A stretch of 10,883 bases of DNA. Origin: Promethearchaeota archaeon. GTDB lineage: Archaea; Asgardarchaeota; Lokiarchaeia; Sigyniarchaeales; SOKP01. Position 1 is the stretch's first letter. Every line of letters starts with the position of its first letter. Made by a program: the position numbers and the translations under genes. Shown one piece after another: positions 1 to 10,883 of this stretch. The stretch covers positions 1-10,883 of the forward strand of contig JBHLNT010000142.1 in NCBI GenBank assembly GCA_048941265.1, written 5' to 3'. The notes below the pieces were generated by a model. It was not told the DNA's origin. It saw only the letters and a list, made by a program, of their open reading frames with translations, and ran no database searches.

Positions 1-24
1 ATTCTATAATTATTTTTAAAGTAT

Positions 25-1143
25 ATGGCTAATTCGACTAATAATTTTGATATTGCTGTGATTGGTGCCGGTCCAGGGGGTTCTTTTGCTGCAAAGGCCA
101 GTGCAGAAATGGGATATAAAACGCTTTTACTTGATAAGGAACAAATTAGAGAAAATGGTCGGTATAAAGCATGTGGCGGAGCCATTGCTTGGGAATTAGT
201 TGAAGAAATTGATTATCCTGAAGATAAAATCTCAAGAGTAATTGAATCTTTAGAATTACATCATATTGATGGAGAAGATTTTTCAAAAAAGGGAAAAGGG
301 GCTGTAATTTGGCGAAGTACTTTTGATAAGTTCATAACGGATATGGCAATTGAGAGTGGAGCAGTGTTAAAAGAGAAAGAACCGATAATTGATATAGAAA
401 AATCTAATAATATCTATCAAATTAAGACAAAAAAGGGAAAATATCAAGCAAAATATGTCATTGCTGCCGATGGGGTTACTTCTCCAACGCTAAAAATGTT
501 AAAGTGGCCTTATTTTGCAAAGGAAAATTTAATTCTAACAATTACTAAAGAAATGAAAACCACAAATTCCTATATTAATACGATCTTAGGATCGGATACG
601 GTTCATTTGTTTTTTGGGATTAAAAATCTTATTCCAATAGGGTATGCGTGGTTATTTCCAAAAGCCGAAACTATTACTGTTGGATGGGGCAACCAAATAA
701 ACCTAATTAAAAATTCTCGAACAGAGTTCGATAAATTTGTGTCATTGCCATATGTTAAAAAGGCCTTAAAAGATTCAAAATTAGAGATATTTAAACCTCA
801 TCTAATTCCTGTTGGTTTAAGACCAAAACTTTATGAAGATAACGTATTTGCAGTTGGTGACGCAGGAGGAATAGTTGATCCTATAAGTGGAAAAGGCATT
901 CCATATGCTATAATGTCTGGACAATTTGCGATTGAAGCGATTAATACAGGAGAAAAAAGAGATAAACCTGATAAATTAGGTACTTTTTATGAAAAAAGTT
1001 TAGATCGAAAGTTTCTTAAAATCTTAAAGGCTAAGCGAGTAGCACGTGATAGAATTTTTCAGAGCGATGAAAGTTTAAAGCAATTTTTAGGTCTTTGGGA
1101 GAAATATAGGTCCTCACAGATTGTAATGGGAAAAATGATTTAA
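25..1143 (+). CDS. Geranylgeranyl reductase-family FAD-dependent oxidoreductase (DGGGPL reductase-like)
   Basis: 372 aa. N-terminal Rossmann motif DIAVIGAGPGG, KACGG cysteine motif, VIAADG, exact GGR signature PxxYxWxFP (PIGYAWLFP) and second FAD motif VGDAGGIVDPISGKGI. The family call is solid; the substrate is inferred from the isoprenoid context. Confidence 0.85.
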   Translation: MANSTNNFDIAVIGAGPGGSFAAKASAEMGYKTLLLDKEQIRENGRYKACGGAIAWELVEEIDYPEDKISRVIESLELHHIDGEDFSKKGKGAVIWRSTFDKFITDMAIESGAVLKEKEPIIDIEKSNNIYQIKTKKGKYQAKYVIAADGVTSPTLKMLKWPYFAKENLILTITKEMKTTNSYINTILGSDTVHLFFGIKNLIPIGYAWLFPKAETITVGWGNQINLIKNSRTEFDKFVSLPYVKKALKDSKLEIFKPHLIPVGLRPKLYEDNVFAVGDAGGIVDPISGKGIPYAIMSGQFAIEAINTGEKRDKPDKLGTFYEKSLDRKFLKILKAKRVARDRIFQSDESLKQFLGLWEKYRSSQIVMGKMI

Positions 1144-1183
1144 TTTAAAGTTCAAAAGATAATGTAATCGGTGGTTAATTCAA

Positions 1184-1732
1184 ATGTTAGTAGCAATTAC
1201 AGGTGCCTCTGGAGCTCAAATAGCTGTTAAATTTCTTGAAATCCTGAAAGAAAAGGATATTAAAACTGAGTTAATAATATCAAAAACAGCAGAAGTAATT
1301 ATAAATACTGAAACTGAATATAAAGTTTCGGAAATTCGTAATTTAGCTACAATAAGTTATGACTTTGATGATTTAGCGGCAGCTCCTGCAAGCGGTTCTT
1401 ATAAATTTGACGCAATGGTTATAGTTCCGTGTACCATGAAGACATTGGCTGCAATAGCAAATGGTATAGCCGATAATTTAATTACAAGAGCAGCTGACGT
1501 AGCTATAAAAGAAAAAAGGAAACTTATACTTGTGGTTAGAGAGAGCCCATTTAGCGCAATCCATCTTGAAAATATGCTCAAACTCGCAAGGTTGGGTGTC
1601 GTGATTGCTCCACCAATACCTTCATATTATATTAAACCAAAATCTGTTGATGAGTTAATTGAACATTCAGTTGGGAGGATACTTGACCAATTAGGTATTG
1701 AAAGCAATATAAAAAGATGGGGAGATAATTAG
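1184..1732 (+). CDS. ubiX: Flavin prenyltransferase UbiX (prFMN synthase)
   Basis: 182 aa. Motifs VAITGASG, ASGS, PCTMKTLAAIANG, NLITRAADV, KEKRKLILVVRESP, HLENML and PPIPSYY are all UbiX/Pad1 hallmarks. GGTGG SD-like site at 1170-1174. Partner UbiD-family gene lies in the same cluster. Confidence 0.96.
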   Translation: MLVAITGASGAQIAVKFLEILKEKDIKTELIISKTAEVIINTETEYKVSEIRNLATISYDFDDLAAAPASGSYKFDAMVIVPCTMKTLAAIANGIADNLITRAADVAIKEKRKLILVVRESPFSAIHLENMLKLARLGVVIAPPIPSYYIKPKSVDELIEHSVGRILDQLGIESNIKRWGDN

Positions 1733-1749
1733 GTATTTTTTAAAATATA
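1733..1749. terminator. Putative bidirectional oligo-T terminator between convergent ubiX and fni
   Basis: 17-nt gap between converging stop codons. It contains TATTTT-TT-AAAATA (1734-1747, 6-bp inverted arms), giving T6 on the + strand and T4 on the - strand. Archaeal termination typically occurs at oligo-T tracts. Confidence 0.4.
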
Positions 1750-2874
1750 TTATTGATTTAACCATTTATACAGCTCCCCAAGGATAACATATTTATTTTT
1801 TTTACCTTTTAGATTTTCTATTTTGTCCACATTCATTAACCATAAACTTGCACGTAATTCATGTTTTAATGTTCTTATTTCTTTAACGGTTTGAGTAATA
1901 GAACCACTTTTCCTATCGTTCCATGCAGTTTTTAGAAATTTAAATGCAAATCCACCAATATCAGCCCCAAAAGCGATAGATTTTGCTATATCAATTCCGG
2001 TTCTTAACCCTCCAGTGGCAATAATTAATTTTTTAGACATATTTCTAACATTAATTATGCTAACTGGAGTAGGTATGCCCCATTCTCTAAATACTTCGGC
2101 AGGATTTCGAGAATATTTTTGATTGTTAAAATTATTACGCTTAGATTCAATTGCAGCAAAACTTGTACCTCCGGACCCTCCGACATCAAATCCATCAAAA
2201 CCAAGTTTATCAAGATTTATCGCTAAATCTTGGTTAAACCCCGTTCCAACTTCTTTTGCGATTATGGGAATTTTATAAATTTCACGTAATTTTAGAAAAT
2301 TTTTGCGAAAAAGTTTATAAGAAATATCTCCTTTATTCTGAACTAATTCGTGCAAAGCATTTAAATGAATTGCCATAGCATCGGCATTAATCATCTCTAT
2401 GCATTTACTAAAAGTTTCTATTTCAAAATCTTCATTGCTAACTTGACCGATACCAATATTTCCAATTATAGGGATATTTGGTGCAACTTCACGTGTGATC
2501 CTGAATGAATCTAATAAAGCAGGATCTTCAATTCCAGCACGTTGACTTCCAACACTCATTATAATGTTTTCTTCTTCCGCGGCCTTAGCCAAAATCTCAT
2601 TTATTTCCTTAGAGACGGGATGCCCGCCTGTAATTGCTGAAATACAAATAGGCGCTGAGATTTTTTTTTTAAAGAAATTTACTGAAAGGTCAATATCCTC
2701 AAAATCGAAGTCAGGGATTGGATGGTGAATCAATTTAATATCGTTAAAATAATTAGTAGAATGCTGCACGTCATATTCTAAGGGAATCTTAAGATGTTCT
2801 ATTTTTCTATCCATAATTTCCTTAGACTGGTTTGGCTTAGGCATATCTTCTTCTTTATATTTACTACTTGTCAT
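1750..2874 (-). CDS. fni: Type 2 isopentenyl-diphosphate delta-isomerase (FMN-dependent IDI-2)
   Basis: 374 aa. RKxxH (RKIEHL), SAITGG (usually AMTGG), VGSQRA, GNIG, HLNALHE (usually HLNxxQE), KEVGTG, GGSGGTSF, WGIPT and ATGGLRTGIDIAKSIAFGA. The start could alternatively be Met11 (2844) or Met21 (2814). Confidence 0.95.
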   Translation of the reverse strand: MTSSKYKEEDMPKPNQSKEIMDRKIEHLKIPLEYDVQHSTNYFNDIKLIHHPIPDFDFEDIDLSVNFFKKKISAPICISAITGGHPVSKEINEILAKAAEEENIIMSVGSQRAGIEDPALLDSFRITREVAPNIPIIGNIGIGQVSNEDFEIETFSKCIEMINADAMAIHLNALHELVQNKGDISYKLFRKNFLKLREIYKIPIIAKEVGTGFNQDLAINLDKLGFDGFDVGGSGGTSFAAIESKRNNFNNQKYSRNPAEVFREWGIPTPVSIINVRNMSKKLIIATGGLRTGIDIAKSIAFGADIGGFAFKFLKTAWNDRKSGSITQTVKEIRTLKHELRASLWLMNVDKIENLKGKKNKYVILGELYKWLNQ

Positions 2875-2883
2875 AATTAAAAC

Positions 2884-3693
2884 TTATTTATTAATTAATA
2901 CGTTTGTACAATTTATTTTTTGATTTTTCAAGGACATGTAAATATACTCTTCTTTAAGTCCATTTATTAATTGCACCGGAATATTATAATTACAAATTTT
3001 TTTAATGAAGTTGAGCTTTCCCTCAATACCACCAGTCACATCAATCTTTTTACCTAAATCTGCTAATTTTAAACTCTCTAATTGATCAGAATAGCATTCT
3101 GTAGCCAATATACAATTAGAATTTTTATCATTTATATACAATCCATCCGTCTCCATTGTAAAAATGACTTTAGAAACGCTATATTTTTTTAAATTTTCAC
3201 ATAACTCAAGAATAATCTCATCTCCCGAAATGATAGAAAACGATCCCTGCTTATCAAGAATAATGTCGCCGTATAAAATAGGTAATATATTGAGATCCAA
3301 GGCAGTTTCGATCATATCAATAGATTGAGTTGAGATTAGATGAGAATCCTTAATGAAAATGCTGGAAGCTTGAATTGATAATGCCGGATATTTTTTTTCT
3401 AAAAATAAATTAATTAGATAAGAATTGAATTTATTCATTGATTGATGGGTTTCAGCAAGTCCGAGAATTTGGTCTGGAATGGACTTATCAATTCCTTTAG
3501 AGATGCCGTATTTTTTTGCGAGAGGATGACCAAATGAACCTCCACCATGAATTAAAATTACTTTTTCATTAGCCTCAATTATTTGCTGAACTGCGCTTTT
3601 TGCAGCATCTTCCCGTATAGAAAAAGGTTTATTTTTATCAGTTAATAAACCTCCACCTAACTTTAACAATATAATTTTATTTATGCTTTTCAA
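2884..3693 (-). CDS. ipk: Isopentenyl phosphate kinase (amino-acid kinase family)
   Basis: 269 aa, TTG start. KLGGGLLTDK, IHGGGSFGH with the IPK-signature His, PILYGD, ISGD and DVTGGI. Lies between mvk and fni, the usual archaeal arrangement. Confidence 0.94.
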   Translation of the reverse strand: MKSINKIILLKLGGGLLTDKNKPFSIREDAAKSAVQQIIEANEKVILIHGGGSFGHPLAKKYGISKGIDKSIPDQILGLAETHQSMNKFNSYLINLFLEKKYPALSIQASSIFIKDSHLISTQSIDMIETALDLNILPILYGDIILDKQGSFSIISGDEIILELCENLKKYSVSKVIFTMETDGLYINDKNSNCILATECYSDQLESLKLADLGKKIDVTGGIEGKLNFIKKICNYNIPVQLINGLKEEYIYMSLKNQKINCTNVLINK

Positions 3694-3706
3694 TTTAACT
3701 TAACAC

Positions 3707-4642
3707 TCAACCTATCATTGTCTTCCAAGCTTCAAATCCCTCTTTTTCGATTGCCTTTGCAATCTTCCCTTGAATTTCTTCACTTTCAGCTAAAGCAATA
3801 ACCAGACCTCCGCGTCCAGTTCCCGTCATTTTAGCACCTAATGCACCATTATTTAATGCAATATCTACTAATCTATCATTTATTTCTCCTGAAACCGTGA
3901 TATTTTGGAGTAATTTATGATTTTGATTCATTAAATTACCTAAAGTTTTTGAATCTCCTTTAAGGAGGGTTTTTTTAGCTTTTTCTGCTAAGATCTTGTA
4001 ATCATTAAATATTTTCGCAAACTTTTCTGGATTTTCTTCCTTTAAACGTCGAACGTCAGCAACTACTTCGGTTGTTGAAGCTGTTATACCTGAATTTGCG
4101 ATTATTAATGGCATATCTTTTGGTGATTTTAAAAGTTCCATTGTATTCTTTCCACCACTTAAATCTTTAACGAACCATATCAATCCTCCAAATGTGGAAG
4201 CCGTATTATCAATTCCAGAGGGTGTTCCGTGATACGCTCTCTCACCTTCATAAGCTGCTTCATTAATTTTTTCATCGTCTAATTTTAGATTAAAGCTATC
4301 GTTTAGGGCACGTGCTAAAGATGTACATTGAGCCGCAGAAGCACCAACTCCACTCGCAGCAATTAAATCTCCGGCAAAAGTTATTTCAAGTTTTTGGCTC
4401 TCAATATCTATTTTTAAATGCTCAATTACATTTTTAATAGACTGTAATGCTTCATCATATTTCTGTTTTTTATACCCAGGAGTGGCAGGTCTCTTATCAT
4501 CAACGCTCCAGCCTTGACCCTCAATAACTTTAACATCTGCGGTGGTATAGGAGCCCAACGCTGATGCGATGGCGGGAAGTCCGTAAACTACGAAATGTTC
4601 TCCGAAGAGAATTGTTTTACCGTATCCTTTGCCAGCCCCCAT
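3707..4642 (-). CDS. mvk: Mevalonate kinase (GHMP kinase family)
   Basis: 311 aa. GKTILFGEHFVVYG (motif I), SGVGASAA (motif II variant), HGTPSGIDN (catalytic Asp) and GAKMTGTGRGG (motif III). GAGGTGA SD 5 nt upstream of the ATG. Confidence 0.95.
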   Translation of the reverse strand: MGAGKGYGKTILFGEHFVVYGLPAIASALGSYTTADVKVIEGQGWSVDDKRPATPGYKKQKYDEALQSIKNVIEHLKIDIESQKLEITFAGDLIAASGVGASAAQCTSLARALNDSFNLKLDDEKINEAAYEGERAYHGTPSGIDNTASTFGGLIWFVKDLSGGKNTMELLKSPKDMPLIIANSGITASTTEVVADVRRLKEENPEKFAKIFNDYKILAEKAKKTLLKGDSKTLGNLMNQNHKLLQNITVSGEINDRLVDIALNNGALGAKMTGTGRGGLVIALAESEEIQGKIAKAIEKEGFEAWKTMIG

Positions 4643-5032
4643 TTATTTCACCTCTACGGTGCCTTCTGAGCCGTTAACAATTAATTTTTGACCGGTTTTA
4701 ATGTTATTAATATTAATTTTATCTACACAGGGAATTTCGCTTATGATGCAACCAACCGCTATGATCGTATCAATTTGTTCATTTACGATTGCTACCGGAT
4801 GAGTATTGCTTTTTTTCATTCTATACATCGTATACGATCCCACAGTCGAACCTTTCCCGGTTGGAAACACTAACACTTTTCCTGTTATGGTTTGACCCTC
4901 AAGCTCATGCCCAACTTCTACAACTTTACCAGAGTCAGGATCAACGCCGCCATAAAATGAAATAGCATCTTTAGTTACAATCGCTTCCGCCTCAGCAGTT
5001 CCCTTATAAATTTTTCTTCCCTCTAACTTCAT
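4643..5032 (-). CDS. Phosphomevalonate dehydratase small subunit (aconitase X swivel domain, DUF126)
   Basis: ISFYGGVDPDSG, GKVLVFPTGKGSTVGSY (catalytic Ser region) and IIAVGCIISEIP. Start moved from the ORF-track 5053 to the ATG at 5032 (MKLEGRK, 129 aa), because it forms an ATGA overlap with the large-subunit stop and has GGAGG 7 nt upstream. Confidence 0.92.
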   Translation of the reverse strand: MKLEGRKIYKGTAEAEAIVTKDAISFYGGVDPDSGKVVEVGHELEGQTITGKVLVFPTGKGSTVGSYTMYRMKKSNTHPVAIVNEQIDTIIAVGCIISEIPCVDKININNIKTGQKLIVNGSEGTVEVK

Positions 5033-6222
5033 TTTATAGCCTCCCCAACACAATTTTCGATTGTTTCAATTTTTATTTTAAACTTATTCTTTGCACGTCC
5101 ATAATAGCACGCTTTTGCCGAATCAACCAAGATTCCCTTGAAGCGTCCTTTTATAGGAGCTACAACACAGCAAGTATCCGCCGCAAACTTTGCACCCGCA
5201 TCTTCAATAATTTTGGAATAACCGGCTTCATCTGCAATTTTTTTTGTAGGGCGAGCGGTTGTAATCCAGAATTCTTTTTTTACTTTCTTTCCTTCAAGTA
5301 AACGTGCTAATTCCGCAATCTCATGAATTGAAGCATGAGGACAACCTATACTAATAAAATCTATCTCAAGATCGTCGTCAGTAAGTTCATCACGGGCCTT
5401 TTCTAAGTCGTCATAATTTACTTCAAATCTAAGATCTTTTGGTTTAGGGTATTTATTATATTCAGGAGTAATTCCTTCCATGTGGAATAAGGCAGTTCCA
5501 CCGTAAGTAGCAATGGAAGCACAAAAAGACTTGAGTTCCTCAACAGTAGCAGAAGAAATTCCCGTAATATAGGGAATATTTTTTCTTAATTCAACCAACT
5601 TATCGCCAATTATTTTTCCTAACAAACCAAATTCATTTGTACCCTTAATTTTAGTCTTTACATTAACTAAAACCTGACCATGACGATTCTCATCCAAATG
5701 ATAACCGTAATAAGGAGTTTTACCTGTTAAAGCTGCTGCTAATGCGCTAGGACCTCCTTCCCTATTAGTTCGGGCTCCTATTACGGAGTTAGAGTAACAA
5801 ACTGCACTACTCTCGGACCATGCGATATGCTGCCCGTAATGGGGTGTATTTCCAATTAGATATGGGGTACAAGAACAGGTTGTAATTATCCCCATTCTGG
5901 CAAATGCATCAATTGCCCGATTTTGGTTTTTAGCGAATTCTTCATCTATTCCTAATGCCCGCCAGTTTTCGCGGTCCATTCCGGCCGGATTTAGTGTGGT
6001 TAGAACTTTAACCTTCCCATCCTCTGCCATTTCACTTAGAAATTCCAATCCTGCCTCTCCCAGATTATCATATGAGACTCCTGCAATCTGAACGCTATAG
6101 ACATCAACCATGGATTCGGCATCAAATATTTCGCCTAAAGTTGTTAAAATTTCCATAGATTTTTTAGCGGCGTTTCCGTACTTTCCCTCCAACATCTCTC
6201 TTTCTTGTGATGTTAATTTCAA
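5029..6222 (-). CDS. Phosphomevalonate dehydratase large subunit (aconitase X catalytic domain, DUF521, Fe-S protein)
   Basis: 397 aa, TTG start. GVSY, TTLNP, CSCTPY, WSESSA, RTNREGG, IGCPH and DTCCVVAP; three Cys motifs fit the Fe-S ligands of AcnX. Adjacent to the swivel subunit, mvk and a UbiD gene. Confidence 0.93.
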   Translation of the reverse strand: MKLTSQEREMLEGKYGNAAKKSMEILTTLGEIFDAESMVDVYSVQIAGVSYDNLGEAGLEFLSEMAEDGKVKVLTTLNPAGMDRENWRALGIDEEFAKNQNRAIDAFARMGIITTCSCTPYLIGNTPHYGQHIAWSESSAVCYSNSVIGARTNREGGPSALAAALTGKTPYYGYHLDENRHGQVLVNVKTKIKGTNEFGLLGKIIGDKLVELRKNIPYITGISSATVEELKSFCASIATYGGTALFHMEGITPEYNKYPKPKDLRFEVNYDDLEKARDELTDDDLEIDFISIGCPHASIHEIAELARLLEGKKVKKEFWITTARPTKKIADEAGYSKIIEDAGAKFAADTCCVVAPIKGRFKGILVDSAKACYYGRAKNKFKIKIETIENCVGEAIK

Positions 6223-6238
6223 TTTACTCCACTCTTAA

Positions 6239-7543
6239 TCATTTAATATATTTGTCAATATCTATTGCTGGGAAATCAGCTTTATCGAAGCTCTTTCCTT
6301 TTGCTATAAGCGGTTTCGTCAGATCAAATCCAATTTTAGTAGTCATTTTAGTTCCTGGTTCTGCGCTAGGATCTAAACTACTTCCCGGTTCTTTATCTTT
6401 AATGACCATACCAACATCCCCTTGAAATCGGGTTGCCATTGCCCATTCAACAGACAAAGGATCATAGATATCAATATCTTTATCTACAATAAACACATGT
6501 TTGCAGCTAGTATGGCCCAAAAAAGCGCCATCAATAGCTTTCTTACCATCTTCATCTGATTTTTTATCAATTTTGACAATCGCATGCAACCACGAGCTTC
6601 CCCCAGGACTAATGTTCACATCCAAGCATTTCACACCGGTCTCATTCACTTTGTTGAAAATTGTTGGTTCACGTGGCATTCCCATTAATATTTTATGCTC
6701 AAGTGCCCCTGGTAATAAAGCTTGCCAAATGGCTTCCTTTCTATGAGTAATTTTTTTAACTTCAAAAACTGGTTCTTCCCTGACCACATCATATGTTTCA
6801 GTTAGATCTACAAATGGTCCTTCGGGATGCCTTTCTTCCATAAAGACCCGCCCTTCTAAAACGAATTCTGCCTCTGCAGGAATTAAAAGATCTACTGAGC
6901 GTGCCTTAACAACCTTAATGGCTTCTAATGCATTTGCAATTTCTAATTCATCAACTCCAATATCTACAGAAGTTGCCCCAGCAATTAGAATATTCGGAGT
7001 ATTTCCTATACAAAACGCTACTTCTAATTCACCATTTTTTTCTAAGAACTTATGAAAATGCCTTCCACTTACTATTCGAGTCGCAAATTTATCCTTAGAT
7101 AATTGCATCGCCCTATGAAAATCCATGTTTTGTCCGTAATCAGGGTCTCGAGTAATAACAACAGCAGAACTAATATAATTTCCCCCATCTTTTTCACAAT
7201 GTAATAATATGGGAAGTTTATCTAAATCAACGCTTGGTTCAATTATTTCTTGACATGGAGCGTCTGTGATAATTTCTGGTTTTGAACGATGTGTAATTGC
7301 TTTTGAGAGCATTGGTATGAGATCTGCTGGAGTTACGCCGAAATATGATGCAATTACATTTTTAGTACAAAAGATATTACCTGCAACGCGAAATTCTGAT
7401 TCTTTGATATTGTTAAAAATTACTTGGGTTGGTTCGATTTCTTTTAAAATTCCAGAAATCTCTAATTTCTTCGAAACATTCACGTCTACTTTACGAAGAA
7501 GCCCTTTTTCATCAATTTGATTGATATATTCTCTAAAACTCAT
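6239..7543 (-). CDS. ubiD: UbiD-family prFMN-dependent decarboxylase, predicted trans-anhydromevalonate 5-phosphate decarboxylase (AMPD)
   Basis: 434 aa. DLDKLP, DGGNYISS, FHR, PAEAEFVLEG, EGPFVDLTETYD, EHKILMGMPREP, VDKDIDI, VEWAMATRFQ and SSLDPS. The family is clear; the AMPD function is inferred from clustering with AcnX, mvk and ipk. Confidence 0.92.
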   Translation of the reverse strand: MSFREYINQIDEKGLLRKVDVNVSKKLEISGILKEIEPTQVIFNNIKESEFRVAGNIFCTKNVIASYFGVTPADLIPMLSKAITHRSKPEIITDAPCQEIIEPSVDLDKLPILLHCEKDGGNYISSAVVITRDPDYGQNMDFHRAMQLSKDKFATRIVSGRHFHKFLEKNGELEVAFCIGNTPNILIAGATSVDIGVDELEIANALEAIKVVKARSVDLLIPAEAEFVLEGRVFMEERHPEGPFVDLTETYDVVREEPVFEVKKITHRKEAIWQALLPGALEHKILMGMPREPTIFNKVNETGVKCLDVNISPGGSSWLHAIVKIDKKSDEDGKKAIDGAFLGHTSCKHVFIVDKDIDIYDPLSVEWAMATRFQGDVGMVIKDKEPGSSLDPSAEPGTKMTTKIGFDLTKPLIAKGKSFDKADFPAIDIDKYIK

Positions 7544-7590
7544 AAATTTTATTCATCTCATATACTTATTTTGATTAATACAAATATGTA

Positions 7591-7608
7591 CAATATAAGT
7601 ATTTCTCA
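7591..7608 (-). promoter_or_regulatory. Putative archaeal BRE/TATA promoter for the ubiD-to-fni operon
   Basis: The minus strand reads GAGAAATAC-TTATAT-TG: a purine-rich BRE-like segment followed by a TATA-like box (7593-7598) about 50 nt upstream of the ubiD ATG. SD-like GAGATGA at 7553-7559. The AT-rich background weakens the call. Confidence 0.4.
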
Positions 7609-7622
7609 GATTAATTATATAA

Positions 7623-8894
7623 TTAATATTTTTTTTTCTCAAAAATTTCTTTAGCATAATCAACTCTAATCTTTTTATCCTCTACTAATTTTTTCGCTAC
7701 TCTTTCTATTAACTCTTCTGGTACTCCCGCTAGTTTTGCTATATTTCTCGAATGAAGGGTCATATGTCCCTTTTGGATTCCTTCTGAAGCTAAAGCTCTT
7801 AATGCACCAACATTTTGGGCTAAACCAAGAGCAGCAGCTACCTGTGAAAGTTCACTTGCACTCTTAACATTTAAAATTTTTAACGCTAAACGGGCCATCG
7901 GGTGAATTTTAGTCATACCTCCTATGATTCCTAAAGCAAGTGGTATTTCTATTTCCCCAAATAAATTTCCATTTGCATCAACCTGAAATTTAGTCAGAGG
8001 AGAGTATTTACCGCTTAATGAAGCATAAGCATGAGCCCCTGCTTCAATAGCACGCGTATCGTTTCCGGTAGCCATTGTCAAAGCTACTATTCCATTCATT
8101 ATGCCTTTATTATGAGTGGTTGCTCTATATGGATCTGCAAGAGCAAATTCATAGGCATTCATTATTCCCTCAACTACTTCAGCTCCGCCTAACAAGTCTT
8201 TATCAAATACTGCTTTACATTTTGCTATACGATGTGTAGCCAAGTTTGATACAATCCTTAGATATATTTTGCCTCCACATAACTCTTCAATGTAAGGACT
8301 CACTGCCTCAGCCATCGTATTTACAACATTTGCGCCCATAGCATCTAAGACATCTACTAATAAATGGAGAATTAACATAATACCACGTCTTGTATTCAAT
8401 TCTCTAATTTCAAAATCAAATGCTCCGCCACCTAATTCATTCAAGAAAGGATCTTGTTCATTAGCCATTCTTATAATTTCATCTTTATGCTCAAATAATT
8501 TTTTTTTAGAGGTAATTATATCTTTTATATCAGTAATTTGAATTTGGGAAATCATAACCGATTTGATTTTTTCGGCATGAAAACCCCCATGCTTTCTCGC
8601 AAATCTAGCGGCATTTGAAGCCGCAGCTACAACAGAAGGTTCCTCTATAACCATAGGAATTAAATAATCTTTATTATTTATCTTAAAATTACATGCTATT
8701 CCCACAGGTAATTGATAACTCCCTATAACATTCTCTATTAGGGTATCTAGCTGAGATGGGCTAAAATAACCGAAGTTGCATAGTAATTTTTTATCTTCTT
8801 CATTTAAATCTATTATTTTATCGATAATTTTAACCCGTTCTTTAATAGGAAGTTTATAAAAACCAGAAATTGCCGACTTTATCTCTTTAGTCAT
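7623..8894 (-). CDS. mvaA: Hydroxymethylglutaryl-CoA reductase, class II (bacterial/'degradative' type)
   Basis: 423 aa. ENVIG, EEPSVVAAAS (catalytic Glu), DAMGAN, RIVSNL, THNKGIMNG (catalytic Lys), GNDTRAIEA (catalytic Asp) and GIQKGHMTLH (catalytic His), all class II signatures. Confidence 0.96.
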   Translation of the reverse strand: MTKEIKSAISGFYKLPIKERVKIIDKIIDLNEEDKKLLCNFGYFSPSQLDTLIENVIGSYQLPVGIACNFKINNKDYLIPMVIEEPSVVAAASNAARFARKHGGFHAEKIKSVMISQIQITDIKDIITSKKKLFEHKDEIIRMANEQDPFLNELGGGAFDFEIRELNTRRGIMLILHLLVDVLDAMGANVVNTMAEAVSPYIEELCGGKIYLRIVSNLATHRIAKCKAVFDKDLLGGAEVVEGIMNAYEFALADPYRATTHNKGIMNGIVALTMATGNDTRAIEAGAHAYASLSGKYSPLTKFQVDANGNLFGEIEIPLALGIIGGMTKIHPMARLALKILNVKSASELSQVAAALGLAQNVGALRALASEGIQKGHMTLHSRNIAKLAGVPEELIERVAKKLVEDKKIRVDYAKEIFEKKKY

Positions 8895-8982
8895 ATTTCT
8901 TACGTCATTTTTTTATTTCAGTATATTATGATAATAATGAAAATGAAAGTTGCTTAAATATTATTTATGCCTCAAATTCATT

Positions 8983-8995
8983 AAAAAAAATAAAA
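8983..8995 (-). terminator. Putative oligo-T terminator after HMG-CoA synthase
   Basis: The minus strand reads TTTTATTTTTTTT starting 13 nt after the stop codon at 9009. Confidence 0.4.
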
Positions 8996-9008
8996 TATAG
9001 TATTATGT

Positions 9009-10637
9009 CTAATAAATTTTCTGAGTGGGTATATACATTGGCACCCAATTCAGCAATCCGATCGCATTATAATCTAATTCATCTTTCTTTTCTACTCTTC
9101 TGACTTCATATTCCACAGAATTTCCTTTTCTCACATTCCATGCGACTCTTACTAAGCCTTTGTTTAGATAACTCAAATCATTCGGATTTGAATAACTTAT
9201 AGGGTTCGATTCTAGAGTGGCAAAAAGAGGAAAAAATCTCTCATGAAATCCTGAATGACCTTTAGGACAATAATTTAATCCTTTTTTATTTGGAATAATA
9301 CATCCTTCATCACAAAAATGGAGTGTAAACCCTCGTTCTTCATTTAATTCATGTTCGCTAATACGACCTAATAGAGCTGTTATTTCAACGTTCCCATTTT
9401 TTATTTGTTCATACTCTTGAACACTTTTCTTTTCTTTAAATTTGATATAATCATAAATTTTGGGACCGTATCCTAAAATTCTTTTAAATTGGGGTTTCAC
9501 TTTTAATAATCCAGAAATACAAGTCGCGCCAGAGCCATAAGAACCAAAATATATGGTATCATGGGGATTAGCATAATTTTCAAGGATAAATTGGATTTGT
9601 GACCAAACAGCCGCATTATACATATTTCCAAAATGCATTGGAACTCGTAAATGAGGCAAAACTCGTTCTTTCACATTGGTATTTATCCAATGCGCCCAAT
9701 TTTCTAATCTATCAGAAGAAAATCCTTTTTCTTTTAATTTTAAATAAATATATTCTGGTAAAAGAGTTACATCATGCAAAAAGAAATCTAATTTCTTCAG
9801 TAACGATATTTTTAAATTATTTCTATTAATTTTTGGTAAATTATTGATATTCTTAATCCAGCGTTTTTGAATTATTTGTTGCATACATTTTATAGGAAGT
9901 TTCGAAAATGGAGCGTGAAATGTATAATAATCAGCGTAAAAATCCCCTATATGCCTAATTAAATCGTCATATGCGCCTAGTTGAAAATTAAGATAGGCAT
10001 CAACCGAATAATGCCCAAAAACCTTAGCATTTTTTTCATTAGCGGGGCGATAAAAATCATTGATATCTCCTGAAATCTTCCCAAACTTTTTACTAAATAC
10101 TGCAATCCGTGGATTTTTGGAAATAATAAGAGCTATTGCTCCTGAACCTTGTGTAGGTTCAGATGGACTTCCCACATTATAGGAGGAAATATCTGCACTT
10201 ATTACAAGAGCCTTATTTATAATATCTTTCTCAATTAAGCCAATAGCATTAAGTACCGCCAAAGTTCCACCTGCACATGCATTATAAATATCTTGAGTCA
10301 AGATATTTTTTTTGAGTCCTAACATTTCGGCAAATATGTTAGATACCGACTTAACGGCATAAGTGATGGTTTCTGTCCCAACAAAAACAGCATCAATTTC
10401 TTTTGGATTAATTTTGCCTCTAACCAAGGCATTATAGGCTGCTTTTAACCCAATCGAAATGATATCTTCATCCACCTCGGCTAATCTCATTTCCTTCAAG
10501 AGCAGTCCTTTTTTGTACTTGTTGGGGTCTACATCTCTTTTTACTGCTAATTCTTCAATGTCTACAAAGTGCCGTGGAGCGTGAAAACTTATTGAATCAA
10601 TTCCAACATCGGAAAACAGATAATCGTCAGAATACAT
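9009..10637 (-). CDS. mvaS: Hydroxymethylglutaryl-CoA synthase with internal insertion and C-terminal Zn-ribbon/OB-fold (DUF35-like) extension
   Basis: 542 aa. VGIDSI, GTET (E89), NACAGGT (C121), EPTQGSGA, DFYRP, FHAPF (H241), GNMY (N338) and SYGSG, so the catalytic set is intact. About 125 extra C-terminal residues contain CDEGC-x10-CPKGH. GGGAG SD at 10645-10649. Adjacent to HMG-CoA reductase. Confidence 0.92.
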   Translation of the reverse strand: MYSDDYLFSDVGIDSISFHAPRHFVDIEELAVKRDVDPNKYKKGLLLKEMRLAEVDEDIISIGLKAAYNALVRGKINPKEIDAVFVGTETITYAVKSVSNIFAEMLGLKKNILTQDIYNACAGGTLAVLNAIGLIEKDIINKALVISADISSYNVGSPSEPTQGSGAIALIISKNPRIAVFSKKFGKISGDINDFYRPANEKNAKVFGHYSVDAYLNFQLGAYDDLIRHIGDFYADYYTFHAPFSKLPIKCMQQIIQKRWIKNINNLPKINRNNLKISLLKKLDFFLHDVTLLPEYIYLKLKEKGFSSDRLENWAHWINTNVKERVLPHLRVPMHFGNMYNAAVWSQIQFILENYANPHDTIYFGSYGSGATCISGLLKVKPQFKRILGYGPKIYDYIKFKEKKSVQEYEQIKNGNVEITALLGRISEHELNEERGFTLHFCDEGCIIPNKKGLNYCPKGHSGFHERFFPLFATLESNPISYSNPNDLSYLNKGLVRVAWNVRKGNSVEYEVRRVEKKDELDYNAIGLLNWVPMYIPTQKIY

Positions 10638-10883
10638 AATTTTTCTCCCGTTTTTTATTTGAAAATTTTATTTTAAATAGTTATCTAATTAATTAAATAT
10701 GTATTTTATTAGTAAATCTTTCAACAAAAACTTTTTGTTTTAAGCAGTTTTTCAATTTTTTTTAGGTTAGAATATTTAGTTTAAGCTTAAATATAAAGGT
10801 TATCTCCTTAAAATGAGCAGAATTCCAATAAATAATTAATTAAACGTTTTAAAACAATTAATTGATTAAAGTTAGTAATTCAA
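10638..10883. promoter_or_regulatory. Very AT-rich non-coding region upstream of the cluster; presumed promoter region of HMG-CoA synthase
   Basis: No ORF in the track. SD-like GGGAG 7 nt from the start, several TATA-like A/T boxes and a perfect 12-bp palindrome TTTAAGCTTAAA (10780-10791). The exact promoter cannot be placed. Confidence 0.4.

Follow-up and report, generated by a model that had tools for sequence, protein, structure and literature searches.

Among the closest described counterparts of the gene considered here is the complex between thiolase and 3-hydroxy-3-methylglutaryl coenzyme A (HMG-CoA) synthase (HMGS) of Methanothermococcus thermolithotrophicus (PDB 6ESQ/6ET9), whose DUF35 component consists of a zinc ribbon followed by a barrel resembling the oligonucleotide/oligosaccharide-binding (OB) fold. 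The architecture of DUF35 and its fusions to thiolase-superfamily proteins have been described (PMC2954200), and HMGS-DUF35 fusions are reported from Pseudomonas fluorescens, in which the HMGS is dead (PMC12960953), and from Streptomyces albus (through PMC11522927). In the current work, these systems are compared with a tailed HMGS encoded by a Promethearchaeota archaeon of the class Lokiarchaeia (assembly GCA_048941265.1, contig JBHLNT010000142.1, positions 1 to 10,883). The 10,883 nucleotides analyzed, named “the window”, represent a whole contig (C139 of the genome G000). An earlier reading of this DNA by a model, made from the letters alone (the original prediction), had already pointed to the existence of HMGS-like/DUF35 fusions in other prokaryotes.

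The gene is located on the minus strand (9009..10637), as are all features within it, and specifies a protein of 542 amino acids (aa) composed of an HMGS catalytic core (aa 1-415; 9393..10637) and a C-terminal tail of 127 residues (aa 416-542; 9009..9392, aa 416 beginning at nucleotide 9392), which is interpreted as an eroded, mevalonate-type DUF35. This fusion is confirmed as a real feature, HMGS-DUF35 fusions and Cys3His DUF35 domains being already known as such. The tail was present in 136 of 400 Asgard genomes, including 133 of the 153 other genomes of the order of the window and both genomes of one further family of the same class, while this query retrieved no tail from the Asgard genomes outside that class, and every tail match in the loci fetched was in the HMGS reading frame, save one cut by a contig end. 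Most of the named homologues carry the label Promethearchaeota or Lokiarchaeota, and some have other Asgard names. Tailed HMGS constitutes a third HMGS lineage, distinct from both the archaeal and the bacterial type; one Asgard order usually has the enzyme in this form, and the tail is invisible to Pfam. No description of the tailed clade or fusion, or of the vestige idea discussed below, was found in a literature search whose coverage did not extend to subscription journals; the Lokiarchaeia mevalonate genes are treated in PMC11052028, the main text of which contains neither “DUF35” nor “fusion”.

Descent, anatomy and position of the tail

The Pfam DUF35 models (PF12172 and PF01796) matched none of 68 tails at E-values up to 1, nor the tail of the L228 fusion introduced below, and searches with the tail of Pfam, of PDB sequences and, as a hidden Markov model (HMM), of 1.84 billion proteins returned no DUF35; two matches to SATB1 (E 0.02-0.05) were dismissed as chance. 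The divergent DUF35-like nature asserted by the original prediction was nonetheless borne out by more sensitive comparisons. Direct profile comparison of the tail with DUF35 gave P 7e-4, with a score of 25.4, the highest value among 100 block shuffles being 20.4, and a Foldseek run, which the prediction had proposed, placed DUF35 chains at ranks 1-8 of 350,542. The two families are bridged by three early-branching fusions, being a metagenomic 477-aa HMGS fusion (L228:3565-4995), whose ribbon has all four Cys and whose C-terminus is almost that of a textbook DUF35, and two others (P0148 and P0151) with a canonical first knuckle. The L228 tail scored 21.1 bits on the DUF35 HMM and 27.7 bits on the tail HMM (best of 1000 shuffles 6.8 and 7.7, respectively), and a profile of the three tails matched the tail family with an hhalign probability of 99.4 (E 6e-21) and mevalonate-type DUF35 with one of 93.9 (E 1.6e-7), as compared with an E-value of 0.057 for the thiolase-linked DUF35 of G000. 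An Atlas model of the P0151 tail reached a template-modelling (TM) score of 0.57-0.64 to DUF35-bearing clusters, which is under the bar of the tool for family naming. This profile homology shows that the tail descends from DUF35; it is read as a mevalonate-type one that was fused long ago and subsequently eroded. At the thresholds used, close relatives of P0151 (0/400 genomes), of L228 (0/330) and of P0148 were not found, and no thiolase or mevalonate gene was recognised in the 10 kb of the L228 locus.

The anatomy of the tail shows what has been retained and what has been lost. The canonical DUF35 zinc ribbon has the spacing C-x2-C-x10-C-x2-C (PMC12329534), and the predicted zinc site of the tail, C442-x3-C446-x10-C457-x3-H461 (9255..9314), keeps the four ligand positions of this rubredoxin-like ribbon and its x10 spacing, with knuckles widened to x3 and His as fourth ligand. 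All motifs listed in the original prediction (C442-DEG-C446, C457-PKG-H461 and the terminal GLVRV, VEYEVRRV and GLLNWVPMYIP) are present, and its view that such knuckles replace CxxC pairs agrees with the canonical knuckles of L228, P0148 and P0151, from which a derivation from CxxC follows. A Cys3His site as such is not new in a DUF35, being already known from that of Comamonas Shy (PMC12329534); that protein binds an aldolase and has His as second ligand (C-x3-H-x8-C-x2-C), whereas His is the fourth in the tail. The ribbon is preceded by a modelled strand (aa 421-428; 9354..9377) aligned with the N-terminal Trp-Arg motif of DUF35, in which Arg is replaced by Gly or Ala, and followed by a reduced OB-like barrel (aa 470-537; 9027..9230) in which W531 takes the alignment position of the Tyr that is invariant in the GIIxYG motif of DUF35. 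In a joint alignment the tail lacks approximately 16 residues over the PYxVAxVELD strand as well as the Arg of the Trp-Arg motif, and both lost segments hold invariant residues in 26/26 mevalonate-type DUF35s, while the counterpart of the N-terminal helical segment of DUF35 is modelled with high confidence as a strand and not as a helix. The tail shares with the DUF35 of 6ESQ/6ET9, its best Foldseek match, the order of ribbon and barrel, the ten residues between knuckles, the C-terminal G-x-x-x-[YW] strand and the modelled site on HMGS, but differs from it by fusion in cis, by its C-x3-C and C-x3-H knuckles, and by the missing helix and OB residues; the accompanying HMGS differs as well, not being of archaeal type and having no linked thiolase gene.

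Conservation of the ligands, which the original prediction had named as a check, was found in 120/120 of the homologues listed at all four positions. In a set of 259 distinct full-length fusions, all 259 retain the three Cys, 250 retain His461 and 258 retain W531, and the tail alignment has nine invariant columns at 23-87% identity. All nine fusions without His461 possess a Cys near position 523, as compared with 5/248 of the His-bearing ones (of two remaining rows, one was unparsed and the other had the His displaced by one position). A Cys near 523 where His461 has been lost fits a real metal site, and the tail is predicted to bind one zinc ion; the loss probably represents a single event, because the nine fusions look like one paralogue group. 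This second paralogue (L047, L048, L049, L050, L051, L053, L054 and L065) mostly lies beside phytoene-synthase-like, flavin adenine dinucleotide oxidoreductase, hydroxylase-like, reductase and isopentenyl diphosphate (IPP) isomerase genes, apparently a carotenoid-type cluster with mevalonate genes of its own in some Lokiarchaeia.

The position of the tail was derived from a full-protein AlphaFold2 model (predicted local distance difference test 86, predicted TM score 0.89). Archaeal HMGS and PhlA superpose on this model to residue 416-418 only, and MucA to 425, so that the end of the HMGS fold near aa 415, as originally predicted, is right with respect to archaeal HMGS (6ESQ/6ET9 superpose on residues 9-418 only). 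For bacterial, plant, human and polyketide HMGS the superposition continues to residue 533-536, where their own C-termini are reached: it covers 379 of 387 residues of Staphylococcus aureus MvaS, to residue 535 (root mean square deviation, rmsd, 2.2), and with human HMGCS1 and VirC it likewise extends to 535. As the last core helix of MvaS ends at 349, at least 31 of the 39 residues after it are matched within model residues 413-535, and part of the tail would therefore be spatially equivalent to the C-terminal extension of the bacterial and eukaryotic enzymes. The extension of VirC is stated to take exactly the place of DUF35 in the archaeal complex (PMC11522927), which, combined with the alignment of VirC to 535, suggests that the tail lies on the DUF35-docking site of its own HMGS, a placement based on one predicted model and on the end points of alignment ranges. 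According to the same source this subdomain is found in polyketide enzymes only, whereas an overlap with the region was seen here for ordinary MvaS and for human HMGS too. The MvaS/HMGCS-type extension, which superposes on the tail, comprises roughly 30-50 residues in the bacterial-type set aligned and has no zinc site. A full-length alignment of the bacterial extension strayed onto the first knuckle and was disregarded, and an equivalence between the first knuckle hairpin and the bacterial hairpin was dropped because the structural alignments end at 533-536.

The catalytic core and its place among HMGS lineages

The Pfam HMGS domains PF01154/PF08540 score above cut-off up to residue 373, and 342 core residues superpose on 6ESQ chain I with an rmsd of 1.7, the HMGS fold thus being present. 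The catalytic integrity claimed by the original prediction is matched by the presence of E89 (10371-10373), C121 (10275-10277), H241 (9915-9917) and N338 (9624-9626). The first three were conserved in 120/120 of the homologues listed, an unfiltered set, and the whole tetrad in 259/259 distinct full-length fusions, a count partly built in for the Cys because the database proteins had been pre-selected on the catalytic-Cys motif. The likeness to bacterial and eukaryotic HMGS noted in the same prediction also stood, the core being nearer to the bacterial than to the archaeal type both in NCBIfam scores and in trees: the bacterial model TIGR01835 gave the best score (216 bits, below its cut-off of 360), and the archaeal models TIGR00748 and NF003274 gave 154 bits (cut-off 353) and 183 bits (cut-off 244), again both below. 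An insertion of approximately 60 residues (roughly aa 262-325; 9663..9854), modelled poorly and with low confidence, is common to the Lokiarchaeia fusions and absent from P0148 and L228; the His-to-Asn spacing measured in Lokiarchaeia fusions is 94-115 aa, as compared with 32 in archaeal HMGS.

Core-only trees resolved an archaeal group, a bacterial/haloarchaeal group and the fusions, with P0151 and P0148 as the earliest branches of the latter. The HMGS of the window falls outside the archaeal clade (100/100) and is sister to, not within, the bacterial/haloarchaeal clade; stand-alone bacterial and eukaryotic HMGS (MvaS, HMGCS1/2) and polyketide HMGS (VirC, PksG, CurD) are linked to it by the sister-group relation and by its best, though below-cut-off, NCBIfam score on TIGR01835. 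When L228 and six outgroup sequences of ketoacyl synthase III (KAS III) were included, archaeal HMGS branched first, then L228, then a group of Lokiarchaeia-type fusions plus bacterial-type enzymes (99/96). This placement was repeated with a mixture model without outgroup (98; 31 rows, ten rows and the six outgroup rows being left out) and with stricter trimming (a quick tree), while approximately unbiased (AU) tests did not reject a single fusion clade (p 0.244, and p 0.108 with stricter trimming), so that the grade leading from L228 to the bacterial enzymes is suggestive only.

Other fusions of HMGS to DUF35 differ from the tailed clade. The dead fusions (P. fluorescens; G000 C96:44364-45800) share the domain order of an HMGS fold followed by DUF35, but have no E-C-H-N tetrad, carry a Pfam-positive Cys4 DUF35, lie beside a thiolase and group with archaeal HMGS in a quick tree. 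The genome of the window itself holds this known type, an HMGS-like protein without catalytic motifs and with a canonical DUF35 beside a thiolase (G000 C96:43163-45800; L032, L091). In other Asgard families, fusions of archaeal-type HMGS and intact DUF35 (L180:2993-4510, and in reversed order L188:4493-6040 and L189:2446-3963) keep the catalytic motifs as the tailed clade does, but are independent, being located inside the archaeal HMGS clade with a canonical full-length Cys4 DUF35. An HMGS-thiolase-DUF35 triad occurs in most of the loci fetched from other Asgard archaea, and archaeal-type HMGS was found in 1/154 genomes of the order of the window. This only instance (L116/L217, contig C199 of G240) is head to head with a conserved thiolase-DUF35 pair, in a genome which also has the fusion. 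Another family of the same class encodes a tail-less bacterial-type HMGS of 377 aa (L103:3020-4150), some relatives of which are labelled Helarchaeota or Promethearchaeota; a genome scan with this protein matched only L103 itself.

The sequences described above permit a tentative evolutionary reading, which we consider possible while leaning against it, namely that tailed HMGS are surviving intermediates between complex-dependent archaeal and stand-alone bacterial/eukaryotic enzymes, a single DUF35 fusion having undergone stepwise erosion, from Cys4 (L228) through CxxC plus CxxxH (P0151, P0148) to CxxxC plus CxxxH (Lokiarchaeia), and having been reduced in the bacterial/eukaryotic line to a remnant of DUF35, the present C-terminal hairpin. 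Consistent with it are the overlap in the modelled superposition of the tail with the bacterial/eukaryotic extension, the position of L228 outside Lokiarchaeia fusions and bacterial-type enzymes in core-only trees, and a graded His-to-Asn spacing (32, 37, 40 and 41-59). Against it stand the AU tests, the dependence of the tree placement on one sequence, L228, and trees built without eukaryotic HMGS; moreover, no sequence similarity is left between the bacterial extension and either the tail or DUF35 (profile comparison, E about 0.5). If true, this reading accounts for how bacterial and human HMGS came by their C-terminal extension.

Role of the tail and the thiolase question

Archaeal HMGS is reported to be inactive when expressed alone (PMC12960953), and an HMGS that is not linked to its partners therefore needs some substitute. 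We somewhat favour the view that the tail serves in cis as a cap stabilised by zinc, by which the enzyme would be freed from the thiolase/DUF35 complex. The tail would fold around one zinc ion and pack against its own HMGS domain, on the face where DUF35 docks, thereby completing and stabilising the enzyme as the C-terminal extension does in bacterial/eukaryotic HMGS, while acetoacetyl-CoA would diffuse in, supplied by a thiolase-DUF35 pair that is separate from the enzyme or by the catabolism of acyl-CoA. Tailed HMGS would offer a natural test of how an archaeal enzyme reported to be inactive without partners becomes independent, with no change in pathway chemistry.

The genomic context of the candidate thiolases bears on this view. 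G000 encodes approximately 20 thiolase-like genes and at least seven DUF35 matches, many thiolase/DUF35 pairs being reported from Asgard genomes (10.1101/2024.07.05.601840). The best candidate partner is the thiolase C32:273-1529, which has an HDCF motif and is conserved in 128/154 genomes, nearly always as one match; it was the best G000 match for eight of 12 canonical mevalonate thiolases, a C72 thiolase being so for the other four. Thiolases of this type have their own stand-alone DUF35 in 49/50 loci, and only one of 45 fusion loci (median 11.3 kb each) contains a thiolase, the exception being L038. The claim of the original prediction that the tail recruits a thiolase encoded elsewhere thus found no support. 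Structures of DUF35 complexes show the thiolase-fold partner in contact with the OB loops and the N-terminal segment (PMC12329534, PMC6392133), and these are the parts eroded in the tail, which would be expected to have lost thiolase binding. Several observations weigh against a purely cis-acting cap: the thiolase-contact surfaces are taken from other complexes, and the position of the tail from one AlphaFold2 model possibly pulled towards known HMGS structures; with its nine invariant columns the tail far exceeds, in size and in conservation, what a simple cap would appear to require; a compensating Cys appears where His461 is lost; in G138 (L038) the fusion gene is head to head with a thiolase-DUF35 pair; and two such pairs lie near a mevalonate kinase gene (L210, L211).

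Alternatively, the tail would still be a scaffold that recruits a thiolase, most likely C32:273-1529, and rebuilds the channelling complex, in which the stand-alone DUF35 and the tail may share the thiolase dimer. The DUF35 subtype found in HMGS-thiolase-DUF35 operons is the nearest to the tail, and no close match to that subtype turned up among 27 sampled genomes of the order (best E-values between 1e-8 and 4e-14, some other Asgard genomes scoring equally low); the C32-type thiolase is highly conserved, resembles canonical mevalonate thiolases as stated, and adjoins the fusion in G138 and the archaeal HMGS in G240; and intact DUF35 is fused to archaeal-type HMGS in other Asgard lineages (L180, L188, L189). 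This scaffold role is nevertheless considered unlikely, given that the Trp-Arg helix and one OB strand have been lost, that the thiolase keeps a DUF35 of its own in 49/50 loci, that 44/45 fusion loci have no thiolase, and that the core groups with stand-alone bacterial-type and not archaeal enzymes. A complex prediction for the tail, two C32 thiolase copies and zinc scored 0.00 and was counted neither for nor against binding. 

Even less probable is a new regulatory or assembly role, in which the tail would bind an acyl-CoA, a downstream metabolite or a pathway enzyme such as the adjacent HMG-CoA reductase. The strong conservation of the surface-looking residues E509, R514, W531 and P533 would suit such a role, as would the acyl-CoA binding proposed for DUF35 (PMC2954200), the fact that HMG-CoA reductase is the commonest neighbour of the fusion, and the rewired zinc site of one paralogue clade in carotenoid-type clusters; yet the strand region proposed as OB binding face (PMC2954200) is the shortened part of the tail, and invariant residues are equally expected from packing on HMGS. 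Convergence, by which the tail would be an unrelated zinc knuckle with a small barrel resembling DUF35, is regarded as highly improbable in view of the bridging sequences with their shuffle controls, the Atlas structure match and Foldseek ranks, the retention of ten residues between the knuckles and the placement on the DUF35 site.

The mevalonate operon of the window

The fusion gene is the first gene of its operon, its product is the sole PF01154 match in G000, and a search of that genome for archaeal-type HMGS found none; as the sole copy in the genome, and in view of its operon, it presumably encodes the working HMGS of the Lokiarchaeia mevalonate pathway. It is followed on the minus strand by an HMG-CoA reductase of nicotinamide adenine dinucleotide type (class II; 7623..8894), by a UbiD-family decarboxylase with two aconitase-X subunits (4643..7543), which belong to the archaeal modified mevalonate route (role from PMC11052028), and by a GHMP kinase, an amino-acid-kinase-family protein and a flavin mononucleotide enzyme (1750..4642; Pfam families), for which the context suggests the names mevalonate kinase, isopentenyl phosphate kinase and type 2 IPP isomerase. 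This succession of genes identifies the cluster as an archaeal mevalonate operon. A geranylgeranyl-reductase-like gene and a UbiX-like flavoprotein gene are convergent to it (25..1732, plus strand).

Related loci vary in composition. A GHMP-family mevalonate-phosphate decarboxylase (cluster c3, e.g. L041:4722-5915) is present in 22 loci, often directly after the fusion gene; the window has the aconitase-X/UbiD route instead, and both routes are found in some loci. The fusion gene itself is in two pieces in two genomes, being far apart on one scaffold in G279 (L042, L109) and adjacent in G275 (L065). Finally, L074, L075 and L104 contain IPP-isomerase-like ORFs of 630-649 aa with no separate isopentenyl phosphate kinase labelled in those loci, and these ORFs possibly represent fusions of IPP isomerase and isopentenyl phosphate kinase.
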